DNA of 32,000 bases from an uncultured Candidatus Saccharibacteria bacterium (GCA_964543385.1 CAZIYE010000003.1:1-32000), one strand, 5' to 3'; shown: positions 4,485 through 30,138, counted from the first letter of the stretch. Translations and numbers: made by a program. Notes: a model not told the origin generated them from the sequence alone.

Positions 4485-4486
4485 CG

Positions 4487-4816: not shown

Positions 4817-4828
4817 GTTTCTCCTTAA

Positions 4829-7777: not shown

Positions 7778-10700
7778 CTATAGGTTGTTTTCAATTTTTT
7801 CCAATGTTTCCATCATCGGTTTTTCTATCTGGCTCTCGATGATCTGTGTTAGAAAAGCGCTAAACTTCTCAGCGATTTCATCTGGATTGTTGGCTGGAAT
7901 TACGTTTTCTCCGTATCTGCTTCGTAGTCCCTCAACCGCACCTGCACCAATGCCCATAGCACCGGTACCTATTGCATAATTTTCCCGCAAATACTTCATC
8001 GCATCAAAAGTATTTGCAGTTATTCCTGTATTATGATCAATCTCTTGGTGACTAATAGAGGCACCATCAGAAATTTGAAAAATAATTTCAGATAAATAAC
8101 CAGAATTCAGAAGTTCCTTTAATTTCGGGTTTTGATCATGAGCTAAAGCAATCCTAGACCAGGCCAGCGCATCTCTCGTATCACCATCTTTTGCGTTCAT
8201 TCTTTGAAATGCCCTGATTGTACTAACCGTTTCAGTCTCGGCCATTTGTAATAATGTTGGCCTTGCTCCCGATTTCGTTTTGTCGGTTAGAAATGAAAAG
8301 TCAGTAACGCTAAAAGGTTTTATCAAACTGACCCTATCTCCAAAAAGCCAGATTTCAGTATCACAAACAACATCCATCTCATCGATATTTTCCGTTACGG
8401 CGCCACCAACCACTTGCTGGAAATTCTTTCGAAAATTTCGCAATGAAGAGTTGAGCAACATCACAGACATTCGGACAGCATCAAGATTGCCACTCATACT
8501 TCCAGAGTTATCTACCAACAACAAAACTCGAAGCATCTTTGGTTTTAGCTCGGCTTTAATTTTTTCGACAATGAGTGAATGAATCAGTCTGCGATCAATA
8601 TCGGCGCCAAATTCAATTTCTGGCAGGAGTTTTTGTAATCGTTTGATATCCGGTTTCCCTTGTCGGTAATATTTATCAACGATAGTATCAATTTTCCGGG
8701 AGATATTTTTGATGATTTGTAGCCAAGCTTCAGCCATCTTGTTGGCTGGTACTCGAAGTTTTTCTTCAAGTTCGAGAAATTTGTCGACCATCTCCTGGGG
8801 TGGAAGAGGGCGGCTTTCTTGTTCCTGGCTAGCGGGTTGATTGTCTTTTAATTGATCTAACAATCTCTTAAACTTATCGTTTTGCGTTTTTTTCTTTTGA
8901 TATTCAGGACTTCTTTTCTCTGACTCGACTTCCTTTATGGTTTCGTCTCGTTCATCTTGTTCGATCATCTCTCGCAAGGCTTTTTCGTAATCACTCACAA
9001 CTTCATCAATATTCTGTGGTTCTTGTTCTGCTCCAGCACTACCAGGTTGACCGGGTTCACTCGCTGGCTGATTATCTTGTTTTTTAGGCTGACCTTTATC
9101 TTCAGATTCACCATCATCCTGATCGTCACCATCTTTATCTTCAGTTTCCTCATCGCCTGGCTCTTTTTCCTTCTCCTCACCATCTTCTTCGTATTCTGTG
9201 TCTCGATCGTCAGTAAAGTCACTTTTTCGCTGCTTCTCGTTTGACTTTTTCTTAATTACCTTCAATTTATCGTTGATTGGAGAGGTTATAGTTTCTGTGA
9301 TTCCTGCCAGCTTTGAACCATCTGCCATTTTATTTTTTTCGTCGAGATATTCCACCTCAACAGAAGTTATCCCTTCTTCATTTCGTAAAACCTTGGTAAT
9401 TATTCCTTTTTTGCCAAAATTAGGACTTTGTCGATCTTTGTTCTTCACTTTATCGCCAGGCTGCCAGTCTGGTGCTTCCTCAATTTCAGGAGGCTCCCCA
9501 CCTTCGCCACCACCCTTGCCATCACCTTTTTGTGGCTCTGGCGGCAATTCCGACTTAAAGCTATCATCAAGAACGCAGAGAAGGCTATAGAGAGGCTCTA
9601 GGATATTTCTGATGGCTCTGGTTCTAGTTACCAGATTATATTTCAAAGGCTTTGTACCAAAGACTGTTCTAGAACGGTCAACCTGCTTAAAGAGGTTGAA
9701 TATGTCCATATACTTAACATTTGAAATTTTGGAAAAATCGAAAGGTAATCCAAGTTGCTTTAAGGAATCCCTTATTTTTCTTTCAAATAATTGGGTGGCG
9801 AAATTAATATCAATTCTCTGATAATCAGAATAAACTGGACCATTTTTACCAACCTCTGCAACATTGACATATACCTCATCCCTTACATAGTTCTTCTTAC
9901 CGCCTTTAAGATCATAAAATGGGACTTTGATCTGGTCACTCATAAAATCAAGATACAAGGATAGTTTATCTGGATCATCTTTGTATTTTTGGACAAAACG
10001 CTCGAGTAACATCTTGTAAGCCTCAGAAAGTGGCCGAGTATAGATAACCCCAACATCTTCATTCAACTTATGTTTACCTTCGGGATTTTTTGATTCATCA
10101 AAAACTTCATTGGTTGACAAGCCAGTCATCTGGTTTTTCATAAAATAGGTCACAAATTGAGATGATCGATTCATCTTGGGAACAGTTTTATCCCAGTCAA
10201 AACCTTGCCCGTAATCCTCTTTCTCTGCGACTCGGATATTACCCTTTCCTTCATCAACATTGATAAGAGGATTCTGACCAAGTTGCTCCATTTGTGGCAT
10301 ATAGACAAAGTCACCGTTATTTTCACCTACTTCTAGGTAGACAGGGAAAAACTGGTTCGTATAAAGATCAACAACTTCCTGATTGTTCCTTCTTGAGTTT
10401 TCAGTGAGAGTGCGGCCATATATTCCTGTGCCAAACACCAAACTATTTACAATTGCGTCTTCGCAGATATTGTAATATTGCCGATACATCGATGCAGCAG
10501 ACATCCGAACTTTTTCGCCCTGTTCATTTCGAACAAAGTAACCTTTTTTCTTTTCATAATTAAACTGTTCAAGCTCGTTGTATTTGCCTGCTAAATCAAG
10601 CTCGCCCATAGTTTTGAGATGGGCAAATTCATGCATAGCGCCGAACATAATTTGCGCAGATGTCATACCTCTCTCTTCACGCATTTTTTTGAATTCCGTC

Positions 10701-11065
10701 ACGTCTAGAGAGATAATGTCTTTTGTTGGCGCATGATAAAAACCCATACCAGCGATAAGCTTGAACTTGGCATTTTTGCGGTATTGCAAGAAGGAAACAA
10801 GGTCAGTATAACGGCCATCCTGGTTGATCCACTGCAACATCTCATCTCTGTATGGCCATAATTCTTTAGGGACATCATTTTCGTCTTTTTCTTCCCTTTC
10901 CGGTTTTTCTGGTGGTTTGGTCGGGTCTTCTGGATCGGGATCTGGCGGCTCGGGACGATCCGCCATTCTTTGCATACCAAAATCAGCCCGATCTTCTGGC
11001 ATTCCCAAATCGGCCGCTGGATTTATTTTTGGCTCTTCGCCAGTTTTCCCAAAAAATTCGGGCAC
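7778..11065 (-). CDS. vWA-domain protein with N-terminal HExxH metallopeptidase-like region and acidic disordered linker (1095 aa)
   Basis: The start is GTG at 11065 with a GGAGGG SD at 11073..11078 (7-nt spacer). HEFAH (HExxH) is encoded at 10619..10633, with a downstream acidic candidate ligand in NICEDAIVN. The central low-complexity stretch is EEDGEEKEKEPGDEETEDKDGDDQDDGESEDKGQPKK. The C-terminal vWA domain has the MIDAS motif LLLVDNSGSMSG (DxSxS), encoded at 8489..8515. This architecture resembles the metallopeptidase+vWA partners of MoxR ATPases. Confidence 0.8.
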   Translation of the reverse strand: MPEFFGKTGEEPKINPAADLGMPEDRADFGMQRMADRPEPPDPDPEDPTKPPEKPEREEKDENDVPKELWPYRDEMLQWINQDGRYTDLVSFLQYRKNAKFKLIAGMGFYHAPTKDIISLDVTEFKKMREERGMTSAQIMFGAMHEFAHLKTMGELDLAGKYNELEQFNYEKKKGYFVRNEQGEKVRMSAASMYRQYYNICEDAIVNSLVFGTGIYGRTLTENSRRNNQEVVDLYTNQFFPVYLEVGENNGDFVYMPQMEQLGQNPLINVDEGKGNIRVAEKEDYGQGFDWDKTVPKMNRSSQFVTYFMKNQMTGLSTNEVFDESKNPEGKHKLNEDVGVIYTRPLSEAYKMLLERFVQKYKDDPDKLSLYLDFMSDQIKVPFYDLKGGKKNYVRDEVYVNVAEVGKNGPVYSDYQRIDINFATQLFERKIRDSLKQLGLPFDFSKISNVKYMDIFNLFKQVDRSRTVFGTKPLKYNLVTRTRAIRNILEPLYSLLCVLDDSFKSELPPEPQKGDGKGGGEGGEPPEIEEAPDWQPGDKVKNKDRQSPNFGKKGIITKVLRNEEGITSVEVEYLDEKNKMADGSKLAGITETITSPINDKLKVIKKKSNEKQRKSDFTDDRDTEYEEDGEEKEKEPGDEETEDKDGDDQDDGESEDKGQPKKQDNQPASEPGQPGSAGAEQEPQNIDEVVSDYEKALREMIEQDERDETIKEVESEKRSPEYQKKKTQNDKFKRLLDQLKDNQPASQEQESRPLPPQEMVDKFLELEEKLRVPANKMAEAWLQIIKNISRKIDTIVDKYYRQGKPDIKRLQKLLPEIEFGADIDRRLIHSLIVEKIKAELKPKMLRVLLLVDNSGSMSGNLDAVRMSVMLLNSSLRNFRKNFQQVVGGAVTENIDEMDVVCDTEIWLFGDRVSLIKPFSVTDFSFLTDKTKSGARPTLLQMAETETVSTIRAFQRMNAKDGDTRDALAWSRIALAHDQNPKLKELLNSGYLSEIIFQISDGASISHQEIDHNTGITANTFDAMKYLRENYAIGTGAMGIGAGAVEGLRSRYGENVIPANNPDEIAEKFSAFLTQIIESQIEKPMMETLEKIENNL

Positions 11066-11132: not shown

Positions 11133-12500
11133 CTATTCTAAGTCAATTAATTTTGTCTTGCCAGGATTCTCAGGATCGGCAACCCGCATTAATATCAGCC
11201 CGCCAGTCTTGTCTTTGGAAATCAAAGACTTGGCTTCTTCAATAGTTAAGTCTTCGATTTCTAGAACAATAGCGCCACCCGTCATCAGATAGCCAATATT
11301 ATCAACTCTCTGTCGCAAAACAATCAAATTTCTCTGCAATCCAGCAGTCGGATTCGTATCTTTTAACTCAGCATCTGCTGTGATGATAAATGAATTCTGA
11401 TCTTTATGTTGAATCAAAGATGAGTAAAATATTTCATTATCGCCGGATAGTTCGACTAACCCGGTACCATCAGGAGTTATGTACTTTGGCACAAGAGAAT
11501 TGTCTTCTAGAGACAAAGGGTGCCTGTCATCGGCAGTTGTCTCAAATTTATCAGCAAGAACTTCACCGCCTTCTATGGCACCAAAGCCTACAGCTTCATC
11601 GAAATAAACAAAACCATTCTTCATACCGCGACAACAATCCTCCCCAGCTTTTTCAACGTACCCACTGCCACCATGCATATAAGTAAACGCCCGGTCTCCT
11701 ATTTTATTTGCCTTTGCTTTGCCGCCATCCATTGAGGAACAAAAATTATCGCCGGCTTCCAAAACTACTAATTCGCCGCCTTTCATCGAAGTACCACAAC
11801 CTTCCCCAGCATGGTCGATAATAATCTTACCCCCTGTCATGGAAATACCAGCAGAATCTCCGGCCTCAACTGCCTTTAGACTACCGTTTTTCATGATCGC
11901 TCCAAAAAAGTTTCCTGCTTTAACAACTTGGAGATCGGCTCTTGGATTATCCAGCCCTATGACAAAATAATCAGATAGCGGTTTTGGAATATCATTTATT
12001 ATTATTTTTTCGCCATCACACCCGAGGTTTAAAAAAATCGTGTTTACGATCTGCGCAAATATTGTTTTCATGTCCCCCTTGACCTCACTTCCAAATGAAT
12101 ATTTGTCAGCTAGCTTAACAATGTCTGCATAAAAGCGACTCCGAAGATACTCTTTCAAAAAGCGTTTATAATATTTGCTGTTTAATTTTATTGCCGGTAA
12201 ATTTTCTCTATTAAATCGGCTTGCAATCCTTGCCATGATTTCAGGAATCAGCATTTCGCCTTCTTCTCTATCATCGTCATCTAGCTTGTCTATATAAGCT
12301 TTCAGATCGCTAATGATTTCGCCTCTTTTGTCTTCAAGATCACGCAAAAATACCTTATCAATGCAGGTTAAGTTTTCTACAAACTCTTTTATCCCGAGTG
12401 CTTCGTCAATGCGAAGAGAATCTTGATTCATGGCGATATCAAAAGATTTCTTTTTGACTGACAGAGTTTCAATAACTTTTGTGATTTCTTGGCAATTCAT
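11133..12500 (-). CDS. Family paralog: N-terminal Cys-module + GXGXG beta-helix domain (455 aa)
   Basis: N-terminus MNCQEITKVIETLSVKKKSFDIA. About 19-aa repeats of the form aGDxxGxxMxGGxIxV are encoded at roughly 11595..11930: AGNFFGAIMKNGSLKAVEAGDSAGISMTGGKIIIDHAGEGCGTSMKGGELVVLEAGDNFCSSMDGGKAKANKIGDRAFTYMHGGSGYVEKAGEDCCRGMKNGFVYF. This matches the GXGXG motif of FwdC and the glutamate synthase C-terminal domain. The conserved tail is GGLILMRVADPENPGKTKLIDLE. The ATGA overlaps the upstream stop. Confidence 0.75.
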   Translation of the reverse strand: MNCQEITKVIETLSVKKKSFDIAMNQDSLRIDEALGIKEFVENLTCIDKVFLRDLEDKRGEIISDLKAYIDKLDDDDREEGEMLIPEIMARIASRFNRENLPAIKLNSKYYKRFLKEYLRSRFYADIVKLADKYSFGSEVKGDMKTIFAQIVNTIFLNLGCDGEKIIINDIPKPLSDYFVIGLDNPRADLQVVKAGNFFGAIMKNGSLKAVEAGDSAGISMTGGKIIIDHAGEGCGTSMKGGELVVLEAGDNFCSSMDGGKAKANKIGDRAFTYMHGGSGYVEKAGEDCCRGMKNGFVYFDEAVGFGAIEGGEVLADKFETTADDRHPLSLEDNSLVPKYITPDGTGLVELSGDNEIFYSSLIQHKDQNSFIITADAELKDTNPTAGLQRNLIVLRQRVDNIGYLMTGGAIVLEIEDLTIEEAKSLISKDKTGGLILMRVADPENPGKTKLIDLE

Positions 12501-13549
12501 TCTTGTACAGCCTTTCCGTTCTTAAAATCCATCTTTCTTCCATGACGATCTATATAATACGACTTGCCTCTGTCAGTAACACCGGCTAATCCTTCGGAAA
12601 AAGAATTGGCAAAGGTGTATCTCTTTCCGGAAATCGGCTTGCCTAACTTATTAATAAAAAAATATCCGCCATCATCCGCAACACGCGCCCGGCCTTCGGA
12701 AAAATTTAAGGCATTAATATATGTTTCGGGAAAAAACTGCTTGCCTTGTTCATTTATAAAAATCTTCCTGCCACCCTTGGCCACGCTGGCTAAACCTTCG
12801 GAAAATTCAGGGGGAATACTACTTAATTCCTCCGGCGGTATATGTCTGCCAGTGATATCAATATAAAACCTCACGCCGCCCTTTTGGACGCGAGCCATAC
12901 CTTTTACAAAGAAGGCCTCGTCGTCGAATGTTTCTTCAATAGCCGACTGCCCGTATGTGTCAATAAAACGCCATTGTGGCCCTTCAAGAGGTTTTCCTTC
13001 CTCGTATACGGTTGCCAGACCTTCTGAAAAAGATTTTGCGTGTTTGAATTTTCCCGGAAAGGCTTGTTGGCCCGAATGGTCAATATAAAAATACTCTCCG
13101 TCATTTTTGACTAACGCTAAGCCATCTGAAAAAGAAGAACCATCTTCGTAGTCTTCCTCGAAAACTCGACGGCCTTCTTTGTTTATAAAAAAGAACTTCC
13201 GTTCGTAATTCACTACTGCCAGACCTTCGGAAAAAGGGCCGATTTCCCAATATTCTGGGGTAATAAGATTTCCATTTCGGTCTACTAGAAGCCATCGGCT
13301 TCCCCTTTGAACTCTCGCAACACCATCGTCAAATGTAGAAATAAAATCAGCTCCAAGCTTTTTACCCAGTTTAAGTCTAAGTTGCAACTCAAAGGGATCG
13401 GTTATAACCTCAATCTCATGAATCTCCGCCACCAATTCTGCTCTTTGCTTCATCCCTGCCGCCACATCATTACGATCTAATGTTTGCTTAAAAATTTCTT
13501 TTTTAGATTGAATGTTTTGTATTTTCTTTGTTATTTCTTGGCATTTCAT
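12497..13549 (-). CDS. Family paralog: N-terminal Cys-module + WG (KWG-type) repeat domain (350 aa)
   Basis: N-terminus MKCQEITKKIQNIQSKKEIF. There are at least six repeats of the form FSEGLAxV...G.(W/F/Y)xFI(D/N)xxG: FSEGLAVVNYERKFFFINKEGRRVF, FSDGLALVKNDGEYFYIDHSGQQAF, FSEGLATVYEEG..WRFIDTYGQ, FSEGLASVAKGGRKIFINEQGKQFF, FSEGRARVADDGGYFFINKLGKPIS and FSEGLAGVTDRGKSYYIDRHGRKM. Confidence 0.8.
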   Translation of the reverse strand: MKCQEITKKIQNIQSKKEIFKQTLDRNDVAAGMKQRAELVAEIHEIEVITDPFELQLRLKLGKKLGADFISTFDDGVARVQRGSRWLLVDRNGNLITPEYWEIGPFSEGLAVVNYERKFFFINKEGRRVFEEDYEDGSSFSDGLALVKNDGEYFYIDHSGQQAFPGKFKHAKSFSEGLATVYEEGKPLEGPQWRFIDTYGQSAIEETFDDEAFFVKGMARVQKGGVRFYIDITGRHIPPEELSSIPPEFSEGLASVAKGGRKIFINEQGKQFFPETYINALNFSEGRARVADDGGYFFINKLGKPISGKRYTFANSFSEGLAGVTDRGKSYYIDRHGRKMDFKNGKAVQE

Positions 13550-13554
13550 TATTA

Positions 13555-14412
13555 TTAAATCCTTTCAACATCTTGGCGAGCAAACATTAAAAAGCGAATC
13601 AATACTTTTTCCTTATACCGAGCGTTGCGTTTATAGATCCATGTTAGCCAAAAAGGTGTATCTGCGTAAGTATCAGAGTGATATCCTATAACCCTTGCAG
13701 GCTCACGATACTTTGAATGTTCACATTGCTCAGCTAGAAGCAACACGCCGCCGCCATTTCTTCCATAATCATCCATAAAACTGTCGTTTTTTAGATAATG
13801 GTAAATCTGATGGAGTAGGTATTCCTTACGGGTATAACCGTCTAAATCTGGATTTTTTGCAGAAACCTCTCTTGCCATATCCGAAAAAGCAACTGGATAG
13901 CAAGGTTGGTTATTGGAGTGGGCATCTTTTGCCAGTTCTTGTGGCTTCGTATAGACAATATAGCTTCTTTGTGGACGCGGAGAACTAGTAATTTTGTCTT
14001 CGTCACCTTCATCGACAGGACTATAATCTTCTCTTATAAAATAATTATTTAATTTCAATTGTTCGTCCGCCGGCACCTTCAAATCAAGGGTGTCTAAGAT
14101 AACAATTGGCTGAGTATAACCTTCTCGCTCTGCGATTTCTTTCGATTCGGGACTCAGATCGAGAAGTTCACCGTTTTTATATAATTCAGAAATATTTACC
14201 TCTACCCCAAGCCAATCGTATAATTTCTGATTTCTATTAATCATTTTAAATTTTTCGGTTACTTCCAGAATATCCTGTCGATTTAATATCTCGGTCAGCT
14301 TACTCTTAATATTAAGAGCCCCCTCAATCTCGTTATCATCGACAAAATCACTAAATTCATCTCGAGAGCTCTTTATCTCGGTGATTATTTGTGTTATTTC
14401 TTGGCAATTCAT
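13555..14412 (-). CDS. Family paralog: N-terminal Cys-module + orphan globular domain type 2 (285 aa)
   Basis: N-terminus MNCQEITQIITEIKSSRDEF. The body aligns by eye with ORF 16628..17617: KLYDWLGVEVNISELYKNGELLDLSPESKEIAEREGYTQPIVI vs PVFDWLDLGINLKNEIFTGNILLPTNEEYAESKKHGFSEILII, and DGYTRKEYLLHQIYHYLK vs DGLTLEQGVMLLINRYKK. I recognised no known motif. Confidence 0.7.
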   Translation of the reverse strand: MNCQEITQIITEIKSSRDEFSDFVDDNEIEGALNIKSKLTEILNRQDILEVTEKFKMINRNQKLYDWLGVEVNISELYKNGELLDLSPESKEIAEREGYTQPIVILDTLDLKVPADEQLKLNNYFIREDYSPVDEGDEDKITSSPRPQRSYIVYTKPQELAKDAHSNNQPCYPVAFSDMAREVSAKNPDLDGYTRKEYLLHQIYHYLKNDSFMDDYGRNGGGVLLLAEQCEHSKYREPARVIGYHSDTYADTPFWLTWIYKRNARYKEKVLIRFLMFARQDVERI

Positions 14413-16631
14413 AGTGGCAAAACCAATCTATTGCAAGATCTTGGTGGGTCGCACCGTCCTGGATCAGCCAAACCAAGGTACATATGTGGAGAATCTGGCG
14501 TCGACCCATCGTCACGTTGAACAAAAGGGATTAAATTAGGAGATGTTTTGAGCTTACAGTTTGTAAAAAGCAGTCTATCGCTCCAGCCGCCTTTGTCAAT
14601 TATGCCTTTCCCCTCTGTCAGACAGGTCATAGCGTAAATAAGCCAAGTTTCAGGTATTTGACCAGATATGCCCGCATACTTATGTGTCCACATTTTCTGA
14701 GCAAATTCCCTATAAGATTGATTCTTTTCTTTATAAATATACGGTCTAGCGATGCTGAAATCTTTAAGATACGTTATATCTTCGCTCAATACCACCTGCC
14801 AAGCAAATCCATCACCAATTAGCTCCAATTTGCTCCCGTTATTTTGTGGCGAGAGAGAATAAATCAAATCACCTGTAGTATCACTATCTATCAGATCATC
14901 TTTTACGCGGACAGGATCGGTTTTATCAATATATATTGGCCGATCGTTAAGCTTGTTCATGAATCTGCCGTTGTCGTCTGAATGCAAAATCAAGTTTTTA
15001 TATTTTTCCACTAGAGAATTAATAGATACTCCAAATGGAATAAGAAGCAATTTTTTAAAACCCCCGTCTATATTCTTCTCAAAAAAATCAAGGCTATCCT
15101 TTTTCATTCTACTCACTATTTCGATGTATTTTGGAACAGAGTATTCCTCACCATCAATGCCAATAATTCCTTCGGAGCCATCTGAGAGCTTTTGAAGAAT
15201 ATTGTTGTCACGAAGTAAATTCAATTGTGAATCATATTGTTCTCTCAGTTTGATTTTTTCCGCAAGTAGCAAGGCAGGTATAATTTCCGTTAATTTAATA
15301 GCCAAATGCTCGATATCTTCCTTCACTTTCAAAGCTGAAGGTATATCCGGTAGCCCATAAGCTGTATCAAAAGAATTTTTCTTGATAGAAAGTGTTTTAA
15401 TATATTGGAGGTAATTTTGTCCACCTAATCGTGCCATTATGACTCCGTCAATTCCCTCATTGAAAAAATTTATAGAATCAAAAGAGTCCGAAAAGGTGTG
15501 TCCATCAACATCTGCCTCCTGCCAGCCTCCTTGAGTCAAAACCCAGATGACGCCTGACTTGGAAACATCAATCTCCTTAAATCCTTTGCTAGAAAGCAAT
15601 CGGGTTTCGTGATTTAATATAAACCATTTATCACCAATCTTTACGGTTGCAAAGTCCTTGTTGTACGCTCCAGTTTGATCGTATGTACCACCGTCGACTG
15701 ATTCAAAATTTTTATCAATAAACTGCAATTTACCGTTTTCCAAAACGGGAGCAATTCCACCGTTAAAATCCAATGCCTTTTGGAAATTTTTCGATACCTT
15801 TTCGCCTTTTTTATTGATATAGAAAGAATCATCTCCTTGTGTCACAGCCAAAAGATCTTCTTGAAAATAAGTTCCCATGAAATGATCGTACTCTTCTTCG
15901 TTGATTCTCTGGCCATTTTCACCGACAAAAAAAGTTTTGCCATCGCTCGTAAAAGCGATGGGGAAGCCATGGAAGTGTATCACCGAAGTAGCATACTCTT
16001 CGCCCAATCTCTGAAAGTTCTTATCGATCAGAAAAAATTGTTTGTTGTTTCTAACACAAGCGAAATCTTTGTTCTGGAAACCATAAGTATCATCATATTC
16101 ACTGCTAATCTTATCACCGGATTGATCGATAAAATATGATTTTCCATCTTTGCGCACACAAGCCAAACAGACTGATGGATCCTCCAAAATTATCCTATCA
16201 TAATCACCTGGCAATTGCTCCGACTGCTTACCGTATTTGTCGATAAAATGATATTTCTTGTCTTCTACCGCAAAGGTCGGCTCACCTGTTTGATCTGAAA
16301 AGCGGATATCTTCAAATTCTTTATCATTTATTATTCTCCCATAAAAATCTAGAAGAATTGATTTGCCATTTGGTAGTCTGAGACTGCCTAAACCAGATTT
16401 CCCAAAGTATGGTAAATCGTGCGGTTTGTTTTTTTTGATCTTTTGGCAAACACCTGCCAAAATCTGAGCTCTTACTCGAAAATCGGCGGCAAAAAAGGGG
16501 TAAAATAAGGGTGATTCCCTTAAGAGAAATTCTCGATAGCCGGCCAAGTCTTTATTCCTGACAATCATAGTTCCTTCTTCTTGGCTAGCCGCTAATTCTT
16601 TGATTTTTTGTGTTATTTCTTGGCAGTTCAT
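14409..16631 (-). CDS. Family paralog, apparent fusion of two units: Cys-module + WG repeats + internal Cys-less module copy + orphan domain type 1 (740 aa)
   Basis: N-terminus MNCQEITQKIKELAASQEEG. WG-type repeats include YHFIDKYGKQ, KSYFIDQSGDKIS, FFLIDKNFQRL, SFYINKKGEKVS, LQFIDKNFESV and KWFILNHETRL. At aa ~403-470 (about 15221..15425) the segment GGQNYLQYIKTLSIKKNSFDTAYGLPDIPSALKVKEDIEHL mirrors the N-module of 11133..12500 (CQEITKVIETLSVKKKSFDIAMNQDSLRIDEALGIKEFVE). The C-terminal third is homologous to ORF 3399..4484. Confidence 0.75.
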   Translation of the reverse strand: MNCQEITQKIKELAASQEEGTMIVRNKDLAGYREFLLRESPLFYPFFAADFRVRAQILAGVCQKIKKNKPHDLPYFGKSGLGSLRLPNGKSILLDFYGRIINDKEFEDIRFSDQTGEPTFAVEDKKYHFIDKYGKQSEQLPGDYDRIILEDPSVCLACVRKDGKSYFIDQSGDKISSEYDDTYGFQNKDFACVRNNKQFFLIDKNFQRLGEEYATSVIHFHGFPIAFTSDGKTFFVGENGQRINEEEYDHFMGTYFQEDLLAVTQGDDSFYINKKGEKVSKNFQKALDFNGGIAPVLENGKLQFIDKNFESVDGGTYDQTGAYNKDFATVKIGDKWFILNHETRLLSSKGFKEIDVSKSGVIWVLTQGGWQEADVDGHTFSDSFDSINFFNEGIDGVIMARLGGQNYLQYIKTLSIKKNSFDTAYGLPDIPSALKVKEDIEHLAIKLTEIIPALLLAEKIKLREQYDSQLNLLRDNNILQKLSDGSEGIIGIDGEEYSVPKYIEIVSRMKKDSLDFFEKNIDGGFKKLLLIPFGVSINSLVEKYKNLILHSDDNGRFMNKLNDRPIYIDKTDPVRVKDDLIDSDTTGDLIYSLSPQNNGSKLELIGDGFAWQVVLSEDITYLKDFSIARPYIYKEKNQSYREFAQKMWTHKYAGISGQIPETWLIYAMTCLTEGKGIIDKGGWSDRLLFTNCKLKTSPNLIPFVQRDDGSTPDSPHMYLGLADPGRCDPPRSCNRLVLPL

Positions 16632-17617
16632 TGTTCTGTCTTTCTAACTGCTTCTTCTACTGATTTCGGATATACCGCAAGCTGTACTCTATCAAATGCA
16701 TTAAAGTCATTACCACCCCAAAACCCTCCTGCGTTTCTTATTCTCAAATCTTGTAATTCATCTGCCATTTCATGACTGTGCCACCAAATATTTAAGAATT
16801 CTGGCGCATAGGGCCTTCCATCTGCTTCAATCCACTTTTCTTTTGTTAGTAGGAGGGGATTGTCGATGGATAGAAACTCTGCCAACTCGCCCCATAGCTG
16901 ACCGTCGGCGTTACGTCTCGCAATTAAATCTGTCGCCTTCTTATATCTATTAATAAGAAGCATGACGCCCTGTTCTAGTGTTAGCCCATCAATAAACAAA
17001 TCGTCTTTTTTCATTTCTTGGCACATTGTATCAATAGCAGGCAAAATCTCACTTGCTTTTTTGTGTTCAAGCTCAGGAAAGGCGTTTTTTCCGTCAAATT
17101 CCTTTTTTACCAAGAGTGTATAAAGTTGCTTGGGACAAGTGGCGTTTCGCCCCTCTTCAGTATTCATCAATGACTCATATTCGCTCGGATTACTTGAACT
17201 GTTATTCCACACACCAGCCATACGGTCATTGTCCGGGTTTAAATCCAATCGGATAGCTTCTGAGGCTTTTTGACACAGAGCGATCCGGTCGATTTGGCCA
17301 GGGATGATTAATATTTCCGAGAAACCATGTTTTTTTGACTCCGCATATTCCTCATTCGTTGGTAACAATATATTTCCAGTAAAAATTTCATTCTTGAGGT
17401 TGATTCCAAGATCAAGCCAATCAAAAACTGGACGAGATTGTTCTGTTGCTTTTTTGATTGCTTCGAGACACTCACCGGAACGGTTCCAAATTTCAAAATC
17501 AATCTCCTTAAGTATTCGCTTGGAATCATCAAAATCATGGCTGTATTGTTTTTGAGCCATCTCAGCATTTAATCTATGAATATTCGTGACTTTCTGTGTT
17601 ATTTCTTGGCAGTTCAT
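16628..17617 (-). CDS. Family paralog: N-terminal Cys-module + orphan globular domain type 2 (329 aa)
   Basis: N-terminus MNCQEITQKVTNIHRLNAEMA. The body is homologous to 13555..14412 (see that entry). There are ATGA overlaps at both ends. Confidence 0.7.
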   Translation of the reverse strand: MNCQEITQKVTNIHRLNAEMAQKQYSHDFDDSKRILKEIDFEIWNRSGECLEAIKKATEQSRPVFDWLDLGINLKNEIFTGNILLPTNEEYAESKKHGFSEILIIPGQIDRIALCQKASEAIRLDLNPDNDRMAGVWNNSSSNPSEYESLMNTEEGRNATCPKQLYTLLVKKEFDGKNAFPELEHKKASEILPAIDTMCQEMKKDDLFIDGLTLEQGVMLLINRYKKATDLIARRNADGQLWGELAEFLSIDNPLLLTKEKWIEADGRPYAPEFLNIWWHSHEMADELQDLRIRNAGGFWGGNDFNAFDRVQLAVYPKSVEEAVRKTEQ

Positions 17618-18720
17618 TGTTTTTTCTCACCCCATTTTAAAACTACACCACCCTCATGGGAAGAGTATAAGACACCATTGGCATAGCAAAGATTTCTAAC
17701 AGCTTTGTCAGATTTTTGTAAAATCGTTCTTTCCGGACACCCAGCTGTTGGTTCTGAAATCACAATTGCACCATTATGTATTCCTCGAGCAATTTTACCA
17801 TCTGGCAAAATAATAATTCTTTTAGTTTCCCATGATAAATCTTCTACCAGCAGCGTTGGGCTCTCGGGCTGATTTTTGTTAACCATATAAATTGCTCCAC
17901 CGTCTGCAACAACATACTCGCTGTCTGAGATATTTGAGACTGAGTTAACTTTACTCAATAATGATATTTCATTTGATTGAATTGAGTTTGAGTTTGGATT
18001 ATAAATCATCTGTACGACCCGTCCCAGTCCTCTGTTTGCACAAAAAACAAATTCGCCATCACCAAGCGGAACGATTTCAGCTTCCGGTGTAAGATCTTCG
18101 ATTGTTTGATGAACATCAGGCTCTGGATTTATATTGCCGTCTTCATTAACTTTCCAGGCATAGATACGGTCAGATCTAAGGCTGACCAGCCAGCCGTTAG
18201 CGCAGATGATGCTGCGTTCATCTCCTTCAAGTGGGGAGCTTTCCTGAATAATTTTACTTGATTTTAGGTCAACAACCGCCATATGCTTTGAACCAAATAG
18301 CTCGACCGCAATGAAGTCTTTGCTTAGCTGTGCAATATTATCAGTGAAGTCCTCTGCGTTTTCCAAAATATCAATTTTTATTTTTTCCCGTTTGCCGTTC
18401 CTAGGATTGAGCTGCATCAATAGATCTTTCCATGAGTCCTTTTGCAAAGTTATATTTAGCCAGACTTTATTGTTTATTTTTGTCAGTTGGGCGGCGGTTT
18501 GAACGGGATTGTTATATTCCTTCGCTATATCTATCTTATCCAATATCTCGACTCTCTCCCAATTAACTTGGCGCTCGGGGATACGGTTCTCAACAAAACG
18601 ATCAATTTTCTTGCTTTGGCTAATTGCTTCATCAAAATTGCCATTATTAAAAGCGTTTATAAAATCCTTGAACAGATCATTGGTCTCGGTGATTAATTTT
18701 GTTATTTCCTGGCAGTTCAT
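17614..18720 (-). CDS. Family paralog: N-terminal Cys-module + WD40-like beta-propeller domain (368 aa)
   Basis: N-terminus MNCQEITKLITETNDLFKDFINAF. The body is strand-rich with propeller-like blade ends RIYAWKVNEDGN, GAIYMVNKNQ and GVVLKWGEKKQ, and with WLVSLRSD and FVFCANRGLGR segments. The general pattern resembles 2154..3392. Confidence 0.65.
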   Translation of the reverse strand: MNCQEITKLITETNDLFKDFINAFNNGNFDEAISQSKKIDRFVENRIPERQVNWERVEILDKIDIAKEYNNPVQTAAQLTKINNKVWLNITLQKDSWKDLLMQLNPRNGKREKIKIDILENAEDFTDNIAQLSKDFIAVELFGSKHMAVVDLKSSKIIQESSPLEGDERSIICANGWLVSLRSDRIYAWKVNEDGNINPEPDVHQTIEDLTPEAEIVPLGDGEFVFCANRGLGRVVQMIYNPNSNSIQSNEISLLSKVNSVSNISDSEYVVADGGAIYMVNKNQPESPTLLVEDLSWETKRIIILPDGKIARGIHNGAIVISEPTAGCPERTILQKSDKAVRNLCYANGVLYSSHEGGVVLKWGEKKQ

Positions 18721-19763
18721 TTATTTTTCGCCCCAAATTTAACTCTCCTACCTTTGCAGTCAATATAAAACTCTTTGCCACCTTTCTTAACAGCAGCAAC
18801 GCCATCATAAAATTCTTGCGCATCATCATATGTATCTTGAAAAACTAGCTGACCACTTTTATTAACATAAAACCACCTGCCATCTTTTTTAACCGGCGCC
18901 AACCCTAAGAAAAAATCTTTGATTTCGTCAAATCTTTCGTCGTAAATAGGTTTGCAAGATTTATCAATGTGAAAAGATTCGCCGTTATTTTTAACCCGGG
19001 CGATACCATCAGAAAAGGTATAGGCGTTGTCAAATGTTTCACTGGAAATTGGGGATCCACTGGTGTCAATGTAAAACCACCGATTATTGTTCAAAACCCT
19101 AGCTATCCCATCTGAAAATCTATTAGCTTGATCAAATGTCTTGCCGTTAAACATTGAATGACCTGCTTTATCGATATAAGACCATTTTTTATTCTTCCGA
19201 ACTGGTGCCAAACCATCTCCAAATTCATCAACCCAATCATAGTCACCTTCAAAATAGTGCTTACCGAAGGTGTCGATAAAATGCCACTTTCCTTCTGGAT
19301 TCCATGACTTCCCCTTTTCTTGCTCGATTATGACCCTAGCCATACCATCATTAAAACGGCTCGCTGACTCAAAAACTTCGCTAAAAGCTTGTTCACCATT
19401 CCTGTTGATATGTACAAAATCGCCGTTTCTTTTCGCCAAAGGGATGTCATCACGGTATTCGGCAATATGGTCAGAGGTCTTGCTGGATATCAGATCGCCC
19501 GTCTCATCAATCAAAAACCATGACCCATCCTTTTCCGCCCTAGCCAAACCTTCAGAAAACGATGAGATATAAGTGGCATCAAGCCTTTGGGATAATGCAA
19601 CCCGGCGGGCAATCTCTCGAGAATATGGATCGCATTTTTCAGCCATTTCTTGAATTTCTTTTGTCAACGCCAGAGACTCTGTTATTCTATCCTTGGGCTG
19701 ATCGATAATATCGAGATTATCGGCGATTTTTATAATAAATTTTGTTATTTCCTGGCAGTTCAT
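18717..19763 (-). CDS. Family paralog: N-terminal Cys-module + WG repeat domain (348 aa)
   Basis: N-terminus MNCQEITKFIIKIADNLDII. Repeats are FSEGLARAEKDGSWFLIDETGDLIS, FGDGLAPVRKNKKWSYIDKAGHSMF, FSDGIARVLNNNRWFYIDTSGSPIS, FSDGIARVKNNGESFHIDKSCKPIY, FFLGLAPVKKDGRWFYVNKSGQLVF and FYDGVAAVKKGGKEFYIDCKGRRV. Confidence 0.8.
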   Translation of the reverse strand: MNCQEITKFIIKIADNLDIIDQPKDRITESLALTKEIQEMAEKCDPYSREIARRVALSQRLDATYISSFSEGLARAEKDGSWFLIDETGDLISSKTSDHIAEYRDDIPLAKRNGDFVHINRNGEQAFSEVFESASRFNDGMARVIIEQEKGKSWNPEGKWHFIDTFGKHYFEGDYDWVDEFGDGLAPVRKNKKWSYIDKAGHSMFNGKTFDQANRFSDGIARVLNNNRWFYIDTSGSPISSETFDNAYTFSDGIARVKNNGESFHIDKSCKPIYDERFDEIKDFFLGLAPVKKDGRWFYVNKSGQLVFQDTYDDAQEFYDGVAAVKKGGKEFYIDCKGRRVKFGAKNK

Positions 19764-21112
19764 GAGACCTCCAAATCGATGAGTTTAGTTTTGCCTTCAT
19801 TTTCCGGATCAGGCACACGCATCAAGATTAGACCGTCGCCTGGTTTGCGATTTTTGGAGATTTGGGATCTGACCTCATCTGGCGTTTTTTCTAAATCATT
19901 TATGATTATAACACCGCCGGTGACACCTTCGCCAAGCTCTCCCTTGGGCAGGTCATTGCATATCAACAGACCCTTTTTCATGCCCGATAATTCAGCAGCA
20001 TCTATTATTCTTGGAGTGTTTAGAATTCCTATATTTGCACGCTCACCGTAATTATTAGTATCTTTTGTTTTAAATTCTTGAAGACTACTGCTGTCAAAAA
20101 TGAAATCAATCGCCATTTTTGTTGTATTCGCCCTGTAGTAGTGGTTGACCTCGGGATTGTAATAAATCGTACAATATGAATATTTATTATTGCCAAGATC
20201 TCTTCTACTCTCCAGCCCATCTATATAATCTTTGCTTACCAGTGTAACTGCATCGGAATTGGGTGATGATGGCGAAGTTGCTGACTCTGCGATGATTACA
20301 ACTTTATATGTCGAGCCGCCAGTATCTCCAAAACTTTTAACATCACCAGTGACATAGATTACTCCATCGGGAGCGAACATTCCCAGTTCATTACCACAAT
20401 TACCAAGTTTCAAAACGCCGCCCCGCATATATTCACCGGCATAATCGCCAGCCTCACTTGCCTCGATCTGACCGCCTGACATCAACATGCCCAGCTGATT
20501 GCCAGTCTTGTTGACTGATATCTTGCCTTTCTGAAGCCCAATACCGAAGTAGTTCTCGAGATATGGGGGGAGTTCTTCACATCTTAATTCTGTGTCTGCC
20601 TCCATCGACTGATTGATCGTTTTGGACAGCAAAAGATTGGAATAAAATTTATTGTTGAAGATTTCCTGCATCGATTCAAGATCGTAACCAGTAAATTCTT
20701 CCTGGATAAGCAGCTCATTAATCTGGACTTCTTGTTCTAGAAGCATTTTTTGGATTTTTTTGCTGCCGATTACTCTTTTTATCAATATTTCAAAAACTTT
20801 TTGATTTATGCCATCCGGCAAGTTAATATTTGGGACAAGCTCGTAAATCTTTTCGAAATTATCCTGATCGTTTAGATAGAAATCAGTTCCTTGTTCGACA
20901 ACTATTTCCTTTGCTTGCGCAAATAACGGTTCCCAACTTTTAGGGTCATAAACTTCAGGAATAATGTCACAAAAAGGCGACTCGATAGCCTTGATGATCT
21001 CCTGCTTCTGTTGCAGAGCAGCTTTTGCATCTTTGGCTTCCATAAAACCATTCAGTAGCGATAATTTCTGAGATATTTGGACAATTTCTTTTGTGGCATA
21101 TTCGCAATTCAT
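19760..21112 (-). CDS. Family paralog: N-terminal Cys-module + GXGXG beta-helix domain (450 aa)
   Basis: N-terminus MNCEYATKEIVQISQKLSLL. GXGXG-type repeats are TGNQLGMLMSGGQIEASEAGDYAGEYMRGGVLKLGNCGNELGMFAPDGVIYVTGDV. The tail GDGLILMRVPDPENEGKTKLIDLEVS closely matches the tail of 11133..12500. Confidence 0.75.
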   Translation of the reverse strand: MNCEYATKEIVQISQKLSLLNGFMEAKDAKAALQQKQEIIKAIESPFCDIIPEVYDPKSWEPLFAQAKEIVVEQGTDFYLNDQDNFEKIYELVPNINLPDGINQKVFEILIKRVIGSKKIQKMLLEQEVQINELLIQEEFTGYDLESMQEIFNNKFYSNLLLSKTINQSMEADTELRCEELPPYLENYFGIGLQKGKISVNKTGNQLGMLMSGGQIEASEAGDYAGEYMRGGVLKLGNCGNELGMFAPDGVIYVTGDVKSFGDTGGSTYKVVIIAESATSPSSPNSDAVTLVSKDYIDGLESRRDLGNNKYSYCTIYYNPEVNHYYRANTTKMAIDFIFDSSSLQEFKTKDTNNYGERANIGILNTPRIIDAAELSGMKKGLLICNDLPKGELGEGVTGGVIIINDLEKTPDEVRSQISKNRKPGDGLILMRVPDPENEGKTKLIDLEVS

Positions 21113-22380
21113 TTATTTCCCCCAAATTCAACAGGCTTGCCCCAATGATCTAGATAAATCCATTGATCAGATGATTCGGTCGTTTTGCAACGGATCAAGC
21201 CATCTTTAAAACTAACAGGAATATCGTTAGATTTATCAACACCGAGGAGGCGGATAATTTTACCTTTGTTTCGTAAATATTTTCCACGCTTGTTAATCAA
21301 ATAATATCCCTCTTCGTCTTTTTTCTTGATTACTGCAATCCCTTCGGAAAAGTCAGAAGCTACCTCAAAGTAAGTACAGGAGCTGTATCTCTCTGCTGAC
21401 TCGTCAGTAAGGTTGTAATTTTTTGGACTGATATAATAGCTGCTATTTTTACCGCTGACTCTGGACCAGCCATCGTGAAATTCTGATGGAGTCTTTTCTT
21501 CGTATTCATCCTTCAGTTCAATAGGATGGAATTTTCCAAGCAAGTTGTCAGCCAGATATTTGCGAGGCTTGCCGTCAGACCCGATAAGTTCCCAATATTT
21601 TCTCGAATAAGTCATGCCATAATTTTCAAGCTGGCGTTTTCTGTAAATCCAGGCCAGACCTTCAGAGAAATCTGTTGCCTTTTCGAACTCTGATTGACCG
21701 TTTTCGGTAACCAATGATTCACCTGTTTCGGTGCAAAATCCATAAGTTTGTTCAACTTTGCCAAACCCACCGTTCTTAGTTTGTTGAAAACGAACAATGC
21801 CATCATCAGAAAAATTGGAAAATCTCTTTTTCTGCCCGGCAAATGTTTCCACCGGCTGACCATCCTTATCAATGATCTTTGAGATCATACCATCGGGAAT
21901 TGCAGTCATACCAAGATGAAATCGGTATTGCCTTGGATCATCGTCGGCCGATGTAAGCTTTCTCAAAATCACCGTGCCATCAGTTCTTAAAAATGTAATT
22001 TTTCCTAATCTATTTACGGCTGCAACTCCTTCAGAAAACCGATCGGCCTTACCTGGATCAATTACTAGGATACGACCATCAGTCATATCGGGATCTTTAA
22101 TGAAATTCCCTTCCTAATCGACATAAACATCGCAGACTTTTCGCCTTGCTAGCGCACAGCCGTCATAAAAATCACCAACATAGTCTAGTTCAAGCTTTTT
22201 CGACAGCCCCTGTCGCAGTTTGAGGTTGTATGGATATATGTTTTCAATCTCGACGATTGTATTCTGAATTTCCGAAATCAAAAACTGCGCCTTGTCGATA
22301 TTACCAGGCCGAGGATCAAGCAATATATCCTTTTGGCTAGATATTGACTGAATAAATTTTGTGACTTCTTGGCAATTCAT
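21109..22380 (-). pseudogene. Family paralog (Cys-module + WG repeats) interrupted by a single in-frame TAG; ORF-track pieces 22114..22380 and 21109..22086
   Basis: The 88-aa piece MNCQEVTKFIQSISSQKD...DFYDGCALARRKVCDVYVD ends at a TAG (22114..22116). My translation of the next 27 nt in the same frame gives EGNFIKDPD, followed by MTDGRILVIDPGKADRFSEGVAAV..., the 325-aa WG-repeat ORF. The stop therefore sits inside a WG unit (VYVD*EGNFI). The joined length of ~423 codons matches the intact paralogs (426-453 aa). Confidence 0.7.
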
Positions 22381-22384
22381 AGAT

Positions 22385-23821
22385 CTATTTTACCTCAATT
22401 AGCTTGGTTTTGCTTGAGGTTGCCCGATTATTTTCAGCTGGAACAGGTACACGCATCAAAACAACACCGGTAATCTTGCGATCCATTTTCACTCTTTTTT
22501 GCGCTTCTTCATAAGTTAAGTTTGGTGCTTCCAGAATCACAACACCGCCATCCATTTGGCTACAGAAATCACCATCAGGAATTGCTCGTAAGACCATGAT
22601 GCCATCTTTTAGTCCTTTAGTTGGGTCACCAGAAATATTTGAGAGATCATCGATGACACAGAGGCCACGTTCTTTTTTCTTCCAATTTAGTAATTCATCT
22701 TCACTAGAAATAATTGGCGGATCTTCGTTTTCCAAATAATCGTAATATCCACGATTTTCGTCATAGCCATAAACCGGTTTTGTGAATTTATCCTTAGTCT
22801 TCTCGGCCGGATCGGTAGTATCCTCCCTGGGCTGATTTATCAGGACTGTATAGTCAGGATCAGCAATGAGACGGGGGTGCATTGAACGTGTAAATATGAT
22901 CGCTCCACCAGTTTTATTGTATGGTAAATGATAATAATAATCACCGATTATAAAAATCGCTCTGCCCGAACCGTTGGCCATATCTCCGCCAGTGCTTCCG
23001 GCCGTAAAGACTCCGCCGGAAGCACACCAACCAAATTTCTCACCGGCTCCTCTTGTATAGATACGGCCTCCTCGCATCAACATGCCAGTAACTTCGCCAA
23101 TACTGTCAGCGTGGATCTCACCCCCCGACATTTGCATTGCCGTCATATTACCAATATTTTCTGCTTGAATTTGTCCTCCAGACATATATTTTGCGCAAAA
23201 ATTCCCTATGGATTCAGCCCTAAAAATACCCTTGCCCATATTGAGACCTGTATAATCGCACTTGTTTCGCCCCGAGTAACTGCTTTTCACTTCTACATCT
23301 GAATTTGATTTGATCAAAGTATTTATAACCGCCGCTTTTATTGCGTCGATCAGCTCGTCTGTTTTGCTTTTTCGATCCTTCTCATCTTCAATATTTTCAA
23401 ATAGCTTCCTCAATAAAACCTTATATTCGGAGTCATCTGCCGGATTTCCCAGCTTGTCATAAAACTGATGGATTTCTGATTTGCTGGCTTTTATCGGTAG
23501 CGGGGTAAATAATGCTTGAACCAAAGCATAGTAGGCGGAATTGTCAGTATCAGTTATCTGTTCTTTTATTTGTGGCATCTTCAAAAGCTCAATCAAGGTT
23601 CTGCCGAATTGAGGATCATTTATCCTGTCCTCGACAGCAGAAAGAGAGAAGTTTTCTCGGATAAATTCTTTGACAATGCCCTCTAAATATTCTTTGTCTT
23701 GAAATAAATCCTTGATCTGACCCTTGCCAGGCACAGCCGTCTCCAAATCACGACAAAATTTATCGCCAGTCCTGGCAATATTTGTCATATCTAAAGTAAT
23801 TGCCTCACAAAATGAATTCAC
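22385..23821 (-). CDS. Family paralog: N-terminal Cys-module + helical region + GXGXG beta-helix domain (478 aa)
   Basis: GTG start at 23821 with a GGAGGG SD 5 nt upstream. N-terminus MNSFCEAITLDMTNIARTGDKFCRDL. GXGXG repeats are IGNFCAKYMSGGQIQAENIGNMTAMQMSGGEIHADSIGEVTGMLMRGGRIYTRGAGEKFGWCASGGVF. The C-terminal part NISGDPTKGLKDGIMVLRAIPDGDFCSQMDGGVVILEAP...KITGVVLMRV...KTKLIEVK is close to its neighbour 23847..25262. Confidence 0.75.
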   Translation of the reverse strand: MNSFCEAITLDMTNIARTGDKFCRDLETAVPGKGQIKDLFQDKEYLEGIVKEFIRENFSLSAVEDRINDPQFGRTLIELLKMPQIKEQITDTDNSAYYALVQALFTPLPIKASKSEIHQFYDKLGNPADDSEYKVLLRKLFENIEDEKDRKSKTDELIDAIKAAVINTLIKSNSDVEVKSSYSGRNKCDYTGLNMGKGIFRAESIGNFCAKYMSGGQIQAENIGNMTAMQMSGGEIHADSIGEVTGMLMRGGRIYTRGAGEKFGWCASGGVFTAGSTGGDMANGSGRAIFIIGDYYYHLPYNKTGGAIIFTRSMHPRLIADPDYTVLINQPREDTTDPAEKTKDKFTKPVYGYDENRGYYDYLENEDPPIISSEDELLNWKKKERGLCVIDDLSNISGDPTKGLKDGIMVLRAIPDGDFCSQMDGGVVILEAPNLTYEEAQKRVKMDRKITGVVLMRVPVPAENNRATSSKTKLIEVK

Positions 23822-23846
23822 ACTGTCCCTCCGTATATTTGTATCT

Positions 23847-25262: not shown

Positions 25263-25278
25263 TCACCCTCCAAAATAT

Positions 25279-27959: not shown

Positions 27960-27964
27960 AATAT

Positions 27965-30126: not shown

Positions 30127-30138
30127 ACTGTTTCATAC

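Follow-up and report, generated by a model that had tools for sequence, protein, structure and literature searches.

The 32,000 nucleotides analysed here (the window) come from an uncultured Candidatus Saccharibacteria bacterium (GCA_964543385.1 CAZIYE010000003.1:1-32000) and hold one long gene cluster on the minus strand. A core of three genes, encoding a protein with zincin-like and vWA-like regions, an AAA+ ATPase and a small acidic protein, is found between two groups of paralogs. The paralogs, 16 of them consecutive and two located downstream of the core, share an N-terminal domain of about 60–65 residues (the N-domain, or handle) with an early invariant cysteine, and eight of these 18 genes open with nearly the same 21 nt. 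This repeated stretch forms the 5' end of the coding sequences in a family of paralogous genes and is not an independent DNA or RNA signal. The handle that it encodes probably serves as a docking or processing tag for the core machine.

A search of the window with ATGAAHTGCCARGAARTMACA returned exactly eight matches with no mismatches, all on the minus strand and with plus-strand ends at 12500, 13549, 14412, 16631, 17617, 18720, 19763 and 22380. No match is expected in shuffled sequence (0 in 100 shuffles). Every match is the opening 21 nt of an open reading frame (ORF) and codes for M-N-C-Q-E-I-T or a close variant of it. The first copy, ATGAATTGCCAAGAAATCACA (MNCQEIT, 12480..12500), opens gene 11133-12500 and overlaps the stop of the upstream gene through ATGA, and the second (MKCQEIT, 13529..13549, gene 12497-13549) is non-overlapping, with a gap of 5 nt. 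ATGA overlaps are found again at 14392..14412 (gene 13555-14412), 16611..16631 (gene 14409-16631), 17597..17617 (gene 16628-17617, 23 nt identical with the copy at 16631), 18700..18720 (gene 17614-18720) and 19743..19763 (gene 18717-19763, 26 nt identical with the copy at 18720). The last copy (MNCQEVT, 22360..22380) opens a broken gene, 21109-22380. Looser copies of the motif are ATGAATTGCGAATATGCCACA at 21112 (MNCEYAT, 21092..21112, gene 19760-21112, with ATGA overlap), ATGAATTGTAATGCACTGACA at 30126 and ATGAATTGTGAGGGGATAACA at 31449. ORF coordinates and bases together give eight ATGA overlaps, at 12500, 14412, 16631, 17617, 18720, 19763, 21112 and 28849.

The conservation begins exactly at the ATG. 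The 40 nt on the 5' side of the starts have nothing in common, apart from the case of two upstream genes whose C-termini are alike, and divergence is fast 3' of codon 8, with 9–36% identity in the N-domain and C-terminal domains that are at most 43% identical (mostly 25–30%) or unrelated. An earlier note on this DNA had described the eight near-identical starts, the three looser copies, the overlaps including that at 28849, and the fast divergence downstream, and all of these are real. It had also suggested that the overlap partly explains the invariant M-N. This does not hold, since the overlap fixes only the first base of codon 2, the overlap-free starts 13549, 22380, 30126 and 31449 carry the same N/K at that codon, and orthologous arrays without overlaps (locus L004) have kept the peptide as MDC/MNC. 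The same note saw the junction as a combined stop, start and Cys signal; the conserved DNA is instead mainly the footprint of the conserved peptide. From the arrangement of the genes, the ATGA overlaps look like ordinary operon packing that would allow coupled translation. The junction taken alone is ordinary, a conserved N-terminal peptide combined with common ATGA overlaps.

Of the window genes, exactly 18 are matched by a hidden Markov model (HMM) of the N-domain that was built in four iterations, and the three core genes are not among them. The 16 tandem paralogs occupy 11133..31449 on the minus strand, with starts at 31449, 30126, 28849, 27959, 26637, 25262/25259, 23821/23818, 22380, 21112, 19763, 18720, 17617, 16631, 14412, 13549 and 12500. 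The 17th paralog (MADNIFCQHLTN..., 3399..4484, HMM E 2e-5) and the 18th (..AYPSCQQITN..., 2154..3392, HMM E 2e-6, with a propeller-like C-terminal part) are located on the same strand downstream of the core. These two paralogs, and a relic N-domain inside gene 14409-16631, had been missed before. Only two N-domain columns are invariant in the window, the Cys at residue 3–9 and a Thr four residues further on (C3 and T7).

Beyond the window and its related loci, almost nothing of the family was found. An exhaustive profile search of 1.84 billion representatives gave 17 matches to the N-domain, of which 13 are the window's own genes, and no Pfam family was found at E<=10. The 361-aa paralog had no homolog except itself. 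The low identity of the C-terminal parts (<=43%) indicates that the paralogs are old. The body of the N-domain is congruent with the class of the C-terminal domain, which argues that the genes duplicate whole, with no sign of shuffled chimeras.

The structure of one paralog, the 350-aa product of gene 12497-13549, was modelled with AlphaFold2 (AF2; mean predicted local distance difference test score, pLDDT, 89.4). The model has helices at residues 2–25, 29–50 and 52–65 followed by WG beta-repeats, and the Cys falls in the first turn of helix 1. On the basis of this model, MNCQEIT is predicted to be a two-residue leader with an N-cap Asn and the first turn of helix 1 in a three-helix N-terminal domain of about 65 residues. 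The beta part resembles the propellers of eIF2A, BamB and the clathrin terminal domain, which are beta-propeller platforms. Other paralogs have a GXGXG-like beta-helix or domains without a match as their C-terminal region, and the cargo of the family thus consists of diverse, mostly non-enzymatic scaffold domains (WG beta-propellers, GXGXG beta-helices and orphans). The Cys is the only one in the 12497-13549 protein, which leaves no intramolecular disulfide or zinc site, and it must therefore act between molecules. No h-region with L-x-x-C is found before the Cys, and the operon proteins have no hydrophobic, transmembrane or signal-like segment (maximal Kyte-Doolittle 19-residue mean 1.23), in agreement with the earlier statement that the Cys, which is present at residue 3–9 of every copy, is not part of a lipobox.

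Three members of the array deserve separate mention. The relic N-domain (NYLQYIKTLSIKKNSFD..., 15255..15416, minus strand, found by HMM) has a Tyr in place of the Cys and lies inside the 740-aa gene 14409-16631. It reads QNYLQYIKTLSIKKNSFD... and is followed by a domain like that of 3399-4484. This gene is apparently a fusion of two former neighbouring paralogs via a lost overlapping stop/start junction. An in-frame TAG (22114..22116, minus strand) splits the WG-type paralog 21109-22380 into two ORFs in the same frame, 22114-22380, which encodes 88 aa with the N-domain only, and 21109-22086, which encodes 325 aa; the context is ...CDVYVD, stop, EGNFIKDPDMTDGR.... Elsewhere in the operon TAG ends genes in the usual way, and the interruption therefore has the appearance of a nonsense mutation that has left a pseudogene or split gene. 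Finally, gene 25279-26640 has two possible starts. The TTG at 26640, from which the gene is listed, stands directly before an ATG at 26637 (TTGATG; 26635-26640, minus strand), the upstream TGA overlaps this ATG by one base (TGATG), and initiation at the ATG gives an N-terminus, MFTPTC, identical to that of the neighbouring gene.

The bases of the motif are more uniform than the peptide requires. Among the core eight genes, pairs with the same residue at codons 2–7 use the same codon in a fraction of 0.805, compared to 0.47 expected from codon usage and 0.466 in the rest of the N-domain, although such pairwise statistics are not phylogenetically independent. That synonymous sites are better conserved at the start than elsewhere thus agrees with the earlier prediction. 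The ten non-core copies show no such excess. The excess is replicated in the related locus L004 (0.75 vs 0.41). In locus L008 it spans the entire N-domain (0.67–0.74), with the C-terminal domains at expectation (0.50). Genes of these loci in general have more A in the third position of codons 2–8 than elsewhere (0.41 vs 0.28), matching CAA, GAA, ATA and ACA, and TGC is used for 51 of 82 invariant Cys residues compared to 95 of the 257 remaining Cys codons of these genes (Fisher p=7e-5). Other organisms, too, carry the identical 21-mer, as seen in locus L019 and in a Berkelbacteria metagenome-assembled genome (MAG; locus L020), so that part of the uniformity reflects long-term selection and not recent copying.

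Gene conversion between neighbouring 5' ends does occur in the window. Two adjacent genes, with starts at 26637 and 27959, share 83 of their first 84 nt, counted from the ATG (99%; 26554..26637 and its partner 27876..27959, both on the minus strand), after which identity falls abruptly to 63% and synonymous sites are at random expectation. This is a sharp gene-conversion boundary. Among the core eight the spatial clustering of synonymous variants was suggestive and not significant (Mantel p=0.16), and spatial autocorrelation was rejected as proof of conversion between them. The 5' bias towards A-ending codons, the TGC preference at the Cys and gene conversion likely all contribute to the extra base uniformity. 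The peptide, and above all its Cys, is under strong purifying selection both within and between Patescibacteria genomes.

The region was also inspected for elements acting as nucleic acid. There is no Rfam family match and no tRNA gene in the window. The 16 junction RNAs (66 nt) fold weakly, with -1.5 to -13.7 kcal/mol and z-scores of -1.9 to +1.25 around zero, and no conserved, unusually stable or unusually unstable structure was found among them. Shine-Dalgarno (SD)-like purine tracts upstream of the starts are variable, and promoter- or terminator-like sites at the junctions show no excess over background. On these grounds an independent RNA or DNA element was ruled out. A widespread mobile repeat was likewise rejected: when metagenomes were scanned with the 20-mer, 39 isolated hits were obtained, roughly as many as chance alone was estimated to give, and most of them lie in short ORFs or in unrelated proteins such as zf-HC2 anti-sigma factors and an extracytoplasmic function (ECF) sigma factor.

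The largest core gene (7778..11065, minus strand) encodes a protein of 1095 aa with a zincin-like region, an SH3/KOW-like barrel, an acidic linker and a C-terminal vWA-like region. Its zincin-like motifs are HEFAH (10619-10633) and EDAIVN (10445-10462). In an alignment of 17 homologs H145, E146, H149, E202 and D203 are invariant, the latter two in a "NILEDAIVN" helix. The vWA part carries a metal-ion-dependent adhesion site (MIDAS) motif, DNSGS...T...D (8498-8512, 8171-8185 and 8063-8074), and D852/S854/S856...D1000 are invariant or nearly so in the 16 homologs that cover this region. An AF2 model of the HExxH region (residues 64–503; 9557-10876, minus strand) has a pLDDT of 89.7 and a predicted template modelling score (pTM) of 0.89, and runs from a beta-sheet through the HExxH helix (73–91) to the Glu helix (128–148). 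The HExxH on one helix and the downstream Glu on a second helix correspond to the arrangement of gluzincins, and kinship to a known peptidase family or fold was not found. Neither Pfam nor the sequences in PDB gave a match to the region, and Foldseek found no structural neighbour in PDB (best E 0.23); we therefore call it zincin-like and assign it to no known peptidase family. Judging from the model, its fold may be new, or the region may be a zincin that has diverged very far. As Pfam and PDB gave no match, membership of a known peptidase family or of a DUF2201-type family was rejected, and the literature searched on DUF2201 was of no help.

The second core gene (4829..7756, minus strand) encodes an AAA_5/MoxR/GvpN-like AAA+ ATPase of 975 aa, with Walker A GDFGTGKT at residue 373 and Walker B LIMDE at residue 518. 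It matches Pfam AAA_5 with 32 bits (cut-off 22, E 1.4e-7), and NCBIfam GvpN partially and weakly (E 1.5e-8, far under the cut-off of that model). The third gene (4487..4816, minus strand) encodes a small acidic protein of 109 aa with the Cys motif QQEICGQEG..AC. It follows the AAA+ gene in six out of six loci compared (the window, L003, L004, L007, L008 and L009). The conserved motif of the protein is ELKEWRDGEFK...QQEICGQEG..AC, and at least one Cys is kept even in distant loci.

Relatives of the large core protein are rare, with only 17 found in 5.8 billion proteins. In a scan of one genome per species, every relative with a named organism belonged to the Patescibacteria, namely Gracili-, Sacchari-, Berkel-, Parcu- and Buchananbacteria. 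The core and Cys-handle genes co-occur in every locus examined from these five groups, with from one to more than 12 genes of the same layout (a short polar leader, the Cys, an amphipathic helix) beside the core. The AAA+ gene and the gene for the vWA-like protein are adjacent or nearby in the window and in loci L003, L004, L007, L008, L009/L010, L014, L016 and L017. Across 15 related loci the early Cys is present in 82 of 82 handle genes, which confirms its conservation in orthologous loci, and it follows a polar leader of 2–12 residues. The residue preceding it is N, D, S or T in 60 of the 82. Together with the frequent Glu at +2 this would fit a helix N-cap or capping box in which the Cys is the first residue of the helix. 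Each genome has its own motif after the Cys, as exemplified by MNCQEIT in the window, MPKHCPQLR in L008 and IDCKEL in L006.

Two of the related loci have features of their own. The Berkelbacteria MAG GCA_026397135.1 holds, on contig JAPLVL010000015.1 (L020, 4534-12079), five more handle paralogs on a contig other than that of its core locus L007. Three of the five carry the exact 21-mer of the window, and they adjoin a Y1 transposase gene (PF01797); the paralogs are thus not always beside the core. A relative of the system in Candidatus Gracilibacteria (L013, 5970-14465) gives open reading only under genetic code 25, where TGA is a sense codon. TGA is used as stop in the ATGA overlaps of the window, and the window organism is therefore not of the recoded lineages.

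We propose that the N-domain is a common docking or processing handle, by which the single-copy core machine would recognise many clients. This reading, which we consider probable, is favoured because the clients share only the handle, because the core is present in single copy and co-occurs with them, and because the handle is uniform within a genome and different between genomes. If a common handle docks the clients to the core, this would explain why the copies of one genome stay alike in the handle as their cargo diverges. The critical contact would be the exposed Cys thiolate at the N-terminus of the helix. Among the sites of the core, the HExxH zinc would be the chemically natural partner for a thiolate and is the likeliest candidate; the Cys would then be a cysteine-switch-like ligand or, if the leader is cleaved off, the P1' residue. 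Cleavage would agree with a leader that varies before an invariant Cys. Alternatively, the partner could be the conserved Cys of the 109-aa protein.

Several points weigh against this proposal. The contact between handle and core is one that we infer, and the zincin assignment draws on motifs and predicted topology in a region for which searches of Pfam and PDB gave no match. Profile support for the vWA domain is weak, with Pfam VWA at E 0.005 in three of the 17 members. The fetched flank of L006 contains no AAA+ gene, and in the Berkelbacteria MAG some paralogs lie on another contig than the core. The non-independence of the codon pairs and the Mantel result given above also belong here.

Part of the evidence could be read at the level of the nucleic acid. 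The 21-mer might be selected as RNA, as a re-initiation module where translation, having reached the TGA of the ATGA, restarts on an A-rich and unstructured fixed sequence, which would freeze the codons too. The eight overlaps, the synonymous excess (0.80 vs 0.47), the A-ending codons CAA, GAA, ATA and ACA along with the general enrichment of A at third positions of codons 2–8, the weak folding of the junction RNAs and the recurrence of identical codons in other species are all consistent with this. However, the 21-mer also stands at the non-overlapping starts 13549 and 22380, the overlapping starts 21112 and 28849 lack it, and the L004 arrays keep the peptide without overlaps. Moreover, the folding z-scores scatter around zero, the SD-like tracts vary, Rfam gives no match, and a general A bias of 0.41 is too weak to give ACA in eight out of eight copies; we therefore regard selection at the RNA level as unlikely. 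The earlier note had also pointed to the junctions as substrates for recombination, by which exchange of 5' ends would homogenise the starts and reshuffle, duplicate or delete cassettes. The part of this concerning 5'-end conversion is real, as seen from the 84-nt tract at 26637/27959 with its abrupt drop to 63%. The synonymous homogenisation of the L008 N-domain over C-terminal domains at expectation, the longest identical runs of 26 and 23 nt, which join neighbours, and the presence of one fused and one broken gene in the array point the same way. Shuffling of cassettes was not seen. All start-motif repeats are direct and on one strand, so that a crossover would delete or duplicate whole genes instead of shuffling them, and the N-domain body follows the C-terminal class without chimeras. 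Runs of 21–26 nt just reach, or fall short of, the length that efficient homologous recombination usually requires, the variants among the core eight are not significantly clustered, and domain scans found no recombinase in the window. As the same 21-mer occurs in other genomes, conversion within this genome is not needed to explain it, and recombination as the account of the junctions is a doubtful, if conceivable, one. A shufflon-like locus was considered separately and rejected, as neither inverted sites nor a site-specific recombinase is present.

Other readings accept the handle as a protein module and give it a different role. As an EAD-type homotypic adaptor of a MoxR-vWA biological-conflict (defence) system, it would recruit the paralogs as effectors or sensors upon activation. 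A small, non-enzymatic, helical terminal domain with many paralogs per genome and lineage-specific copies is what has been described for EADs, which are linked to MoxR-vWA cores and have scaffold-type domains such as beta-propellers commonly at the effector position (PMC7159879), and the present family is likewise fast-evolving and rich in orphans. But EAD systems are defined by one copy of the EAD being fused to a core component, and no such copy is found here, since the HMM matches none of the core proteins. In addition there is no Pfam EAD match, no PADLOC hit, no VMAP, iSTAND or FtsH third component and no enzymatic or toxic effector domain, and the hosts are Patescibacteria with tiny genomes and not the multicellular bacteria typical of EAD systems; the adaptor reading is thus quite improbable. 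A role like that of Midasin also appears unlikely, if a little less so. Here the vWA MIDAS would bind the handle, the AAA_5 motor would extract clients with a propeller or beta-helix from an assembly or draw them into one, and the Cys would be structural only. The components correspond to those known for Rea1 (PMC6624252), with an ATPase of the AAA_5 type, an intact MIDAS and beta-propeller proteins that carry a small handle at the N-terminus, and a Glu is frequent at +2 from the Cys (CQEIT). Yet MIDAS ligands are Asp or Glu, and the handle has no invariant acidic residue, only C and T; this role would also leave the invariant HExxH module and the Cys without a function. There is hardly any case for the Cys as an export tag, be it a lipoprotein signal, a secretion signal or one of another kind. 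WG-repeat proteins of other bacteria are often located outside the cytoplasm, but no hydrophobic segment is found before the Cys or anywhere in the proteins, the leader is just 2–12 polar residues, and the operon has no membrane protein.

Compared to described systems, the core resembles the MoxR AAA+/vWA pairs (RavA-ViaA, NorQ-NorD, CbbQ-CbbO and GvpN), which are thought to remodel or mature specific client proteins (background in PMC9976466 and PMC13036017). As in these pairs, an AAA_5/MoxR-like ATPase gene adjoins a second gene, here for a putative vWA protein with an intact MIDAS motif. The window system differs in several respects. Its vWA protein adds an N-terminal HExxH...E module, apparently of a new fold, and an SH3/KOW-like barrel, its ATPase has N- and C-terminal extensions of about 350 and 300 residues, respectively, and a small acidic Cys protein is the third constant partner. 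Moreover, up to 18 tagged client genes flank the core, and the organism-named relatives are all Patescibacteria. Midasin/Rea1, a dynein-related AAA_5 motor of eukaryotic ribosome assembly, uses its MIDAS to bind the ubiquitin-like (UBL) handles of the beta-propeller proteins Rsa4 and Ytm1, with an essential Glu (PMC6624252). The combination of an AAA_5 motor and a MIDAS with a small N-terminal handle on beta-propeller proteins is shared with the window. In contrast to the UBL handle and its Glu, the handle here is predicted to be three-helical and has an invariant Cys. The window system also divides motor and MIDAS between two proteins, includes a zincin-like module and has no link to the ribosome. 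EAD1–11 of the ternary MoxR-vWA conflict systems are small helical terminal modules of which one copy is found on a core component (Kaur et al. 2020, PMC7159879). The N-domain is like them in being a small, helical, non-enzymatic terminal module on many proteins, with copies more alike within than between genomes. It differs in having no copy on the core, no Pfam EAD match, scaffold instead of enzyme cargo and no VMAP or iSTAND partner.

Two further comparisons concern the Cys itself. In the cysteine-switch propeptides of MMP and ADAM proteases a conserved N-terminal Cys goes together with an HExxH zinc site, for which a thiolate is the natural fourth ligand. The window likewise combines a conserved Cys in an N-terminal segment with an HExxH site. 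Here, however, the two are on different proteins, the fold is unrelated and a contact between them is putative throughout. In ZAS anti-sigma proteins the first Cys or His of helix 1 is a zinc ligand. Unrelated zf-HC2 anti-sigma factors from metagenomes open with an identical MNCQEIT in the same codons (L041 at 4028-4855, L050, L052, L053 and L060), and position 1 of the zf-HC2 model falls on the Cys of this peptide. The window domain differs in having no HxxxCxxC half-site. Homology to zf-HC2 was rejected, as there is no PF13490 hit at E<=10 and hhalign covers only 12 residues. The shared peptide is convergence on a Cys-first helix, an analogy and not homology, and illustrates that zinc can be bound by a Cys with which a first helix begins. 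A known defence system was also excluded, since PADLOC returned nothing meaningful and NCBIfam gave only weak partial matches to GvpN and to an FwdC-like protein. Literature searches on WG repeats and on Patescibacteria plus MoxR found nothing relevant. MoxR-vWA pairs and shared adaptor domains are known kinds; the zincin-vWA core, the Cys-capped handle family and the restriction of named relatives to Patescibacteria appear to be undescribed.

Beside the cluster, a divergent gene is found on the plus strand (409-1098). Its product is PLD-like (PLDc_2) and has a C-terminal segment of strong hydrophobicity (hydropathy 2.52), and a coiled-coil protein is encoded after it (1386-2126). Neither has an evident link to the operon.

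The genomes of Patescibacteria are very small, and the use of about 30 kb on this locus therefore implies that it does something important, which may concern hosts or invaders. The junction flags a compact and apparently uncharacterised system, with 17 relatives of its core protein, an HExxH module without a PDB neighbour and up to 18 clients. The locus is also a clean natural example of how one end of tandem paralogs is kept uniform, by selection and short-tract gene conversion, while the rest diverges beyond recognition. A more elaborate version of the docking proposal, which we offer as a speculation with little probability of being right in all its parts, is that an ATP-driven Patescibacteria machine of a MoxR-like motor, a new-fold zinc peptidase with MIDAS and a small Cys protein reads the Cys-capped helix as a universal tag on a large and fast-evolving set of binding scaffolds (propellers, beta-helices and orphans). 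The thiolate would plug into the zinc and keep the clients latent until they are released or cleaved; the clients would form a repertoire for interaction with hosts, and the tag would be kept uniform by 5' gene conversion. The single invariant Cys offers a sharp entry point for experiments. If true, such a tag-reading machine would give these episymbiotic bacteria a repertoire-type system for recognition or for interaction with hosts.

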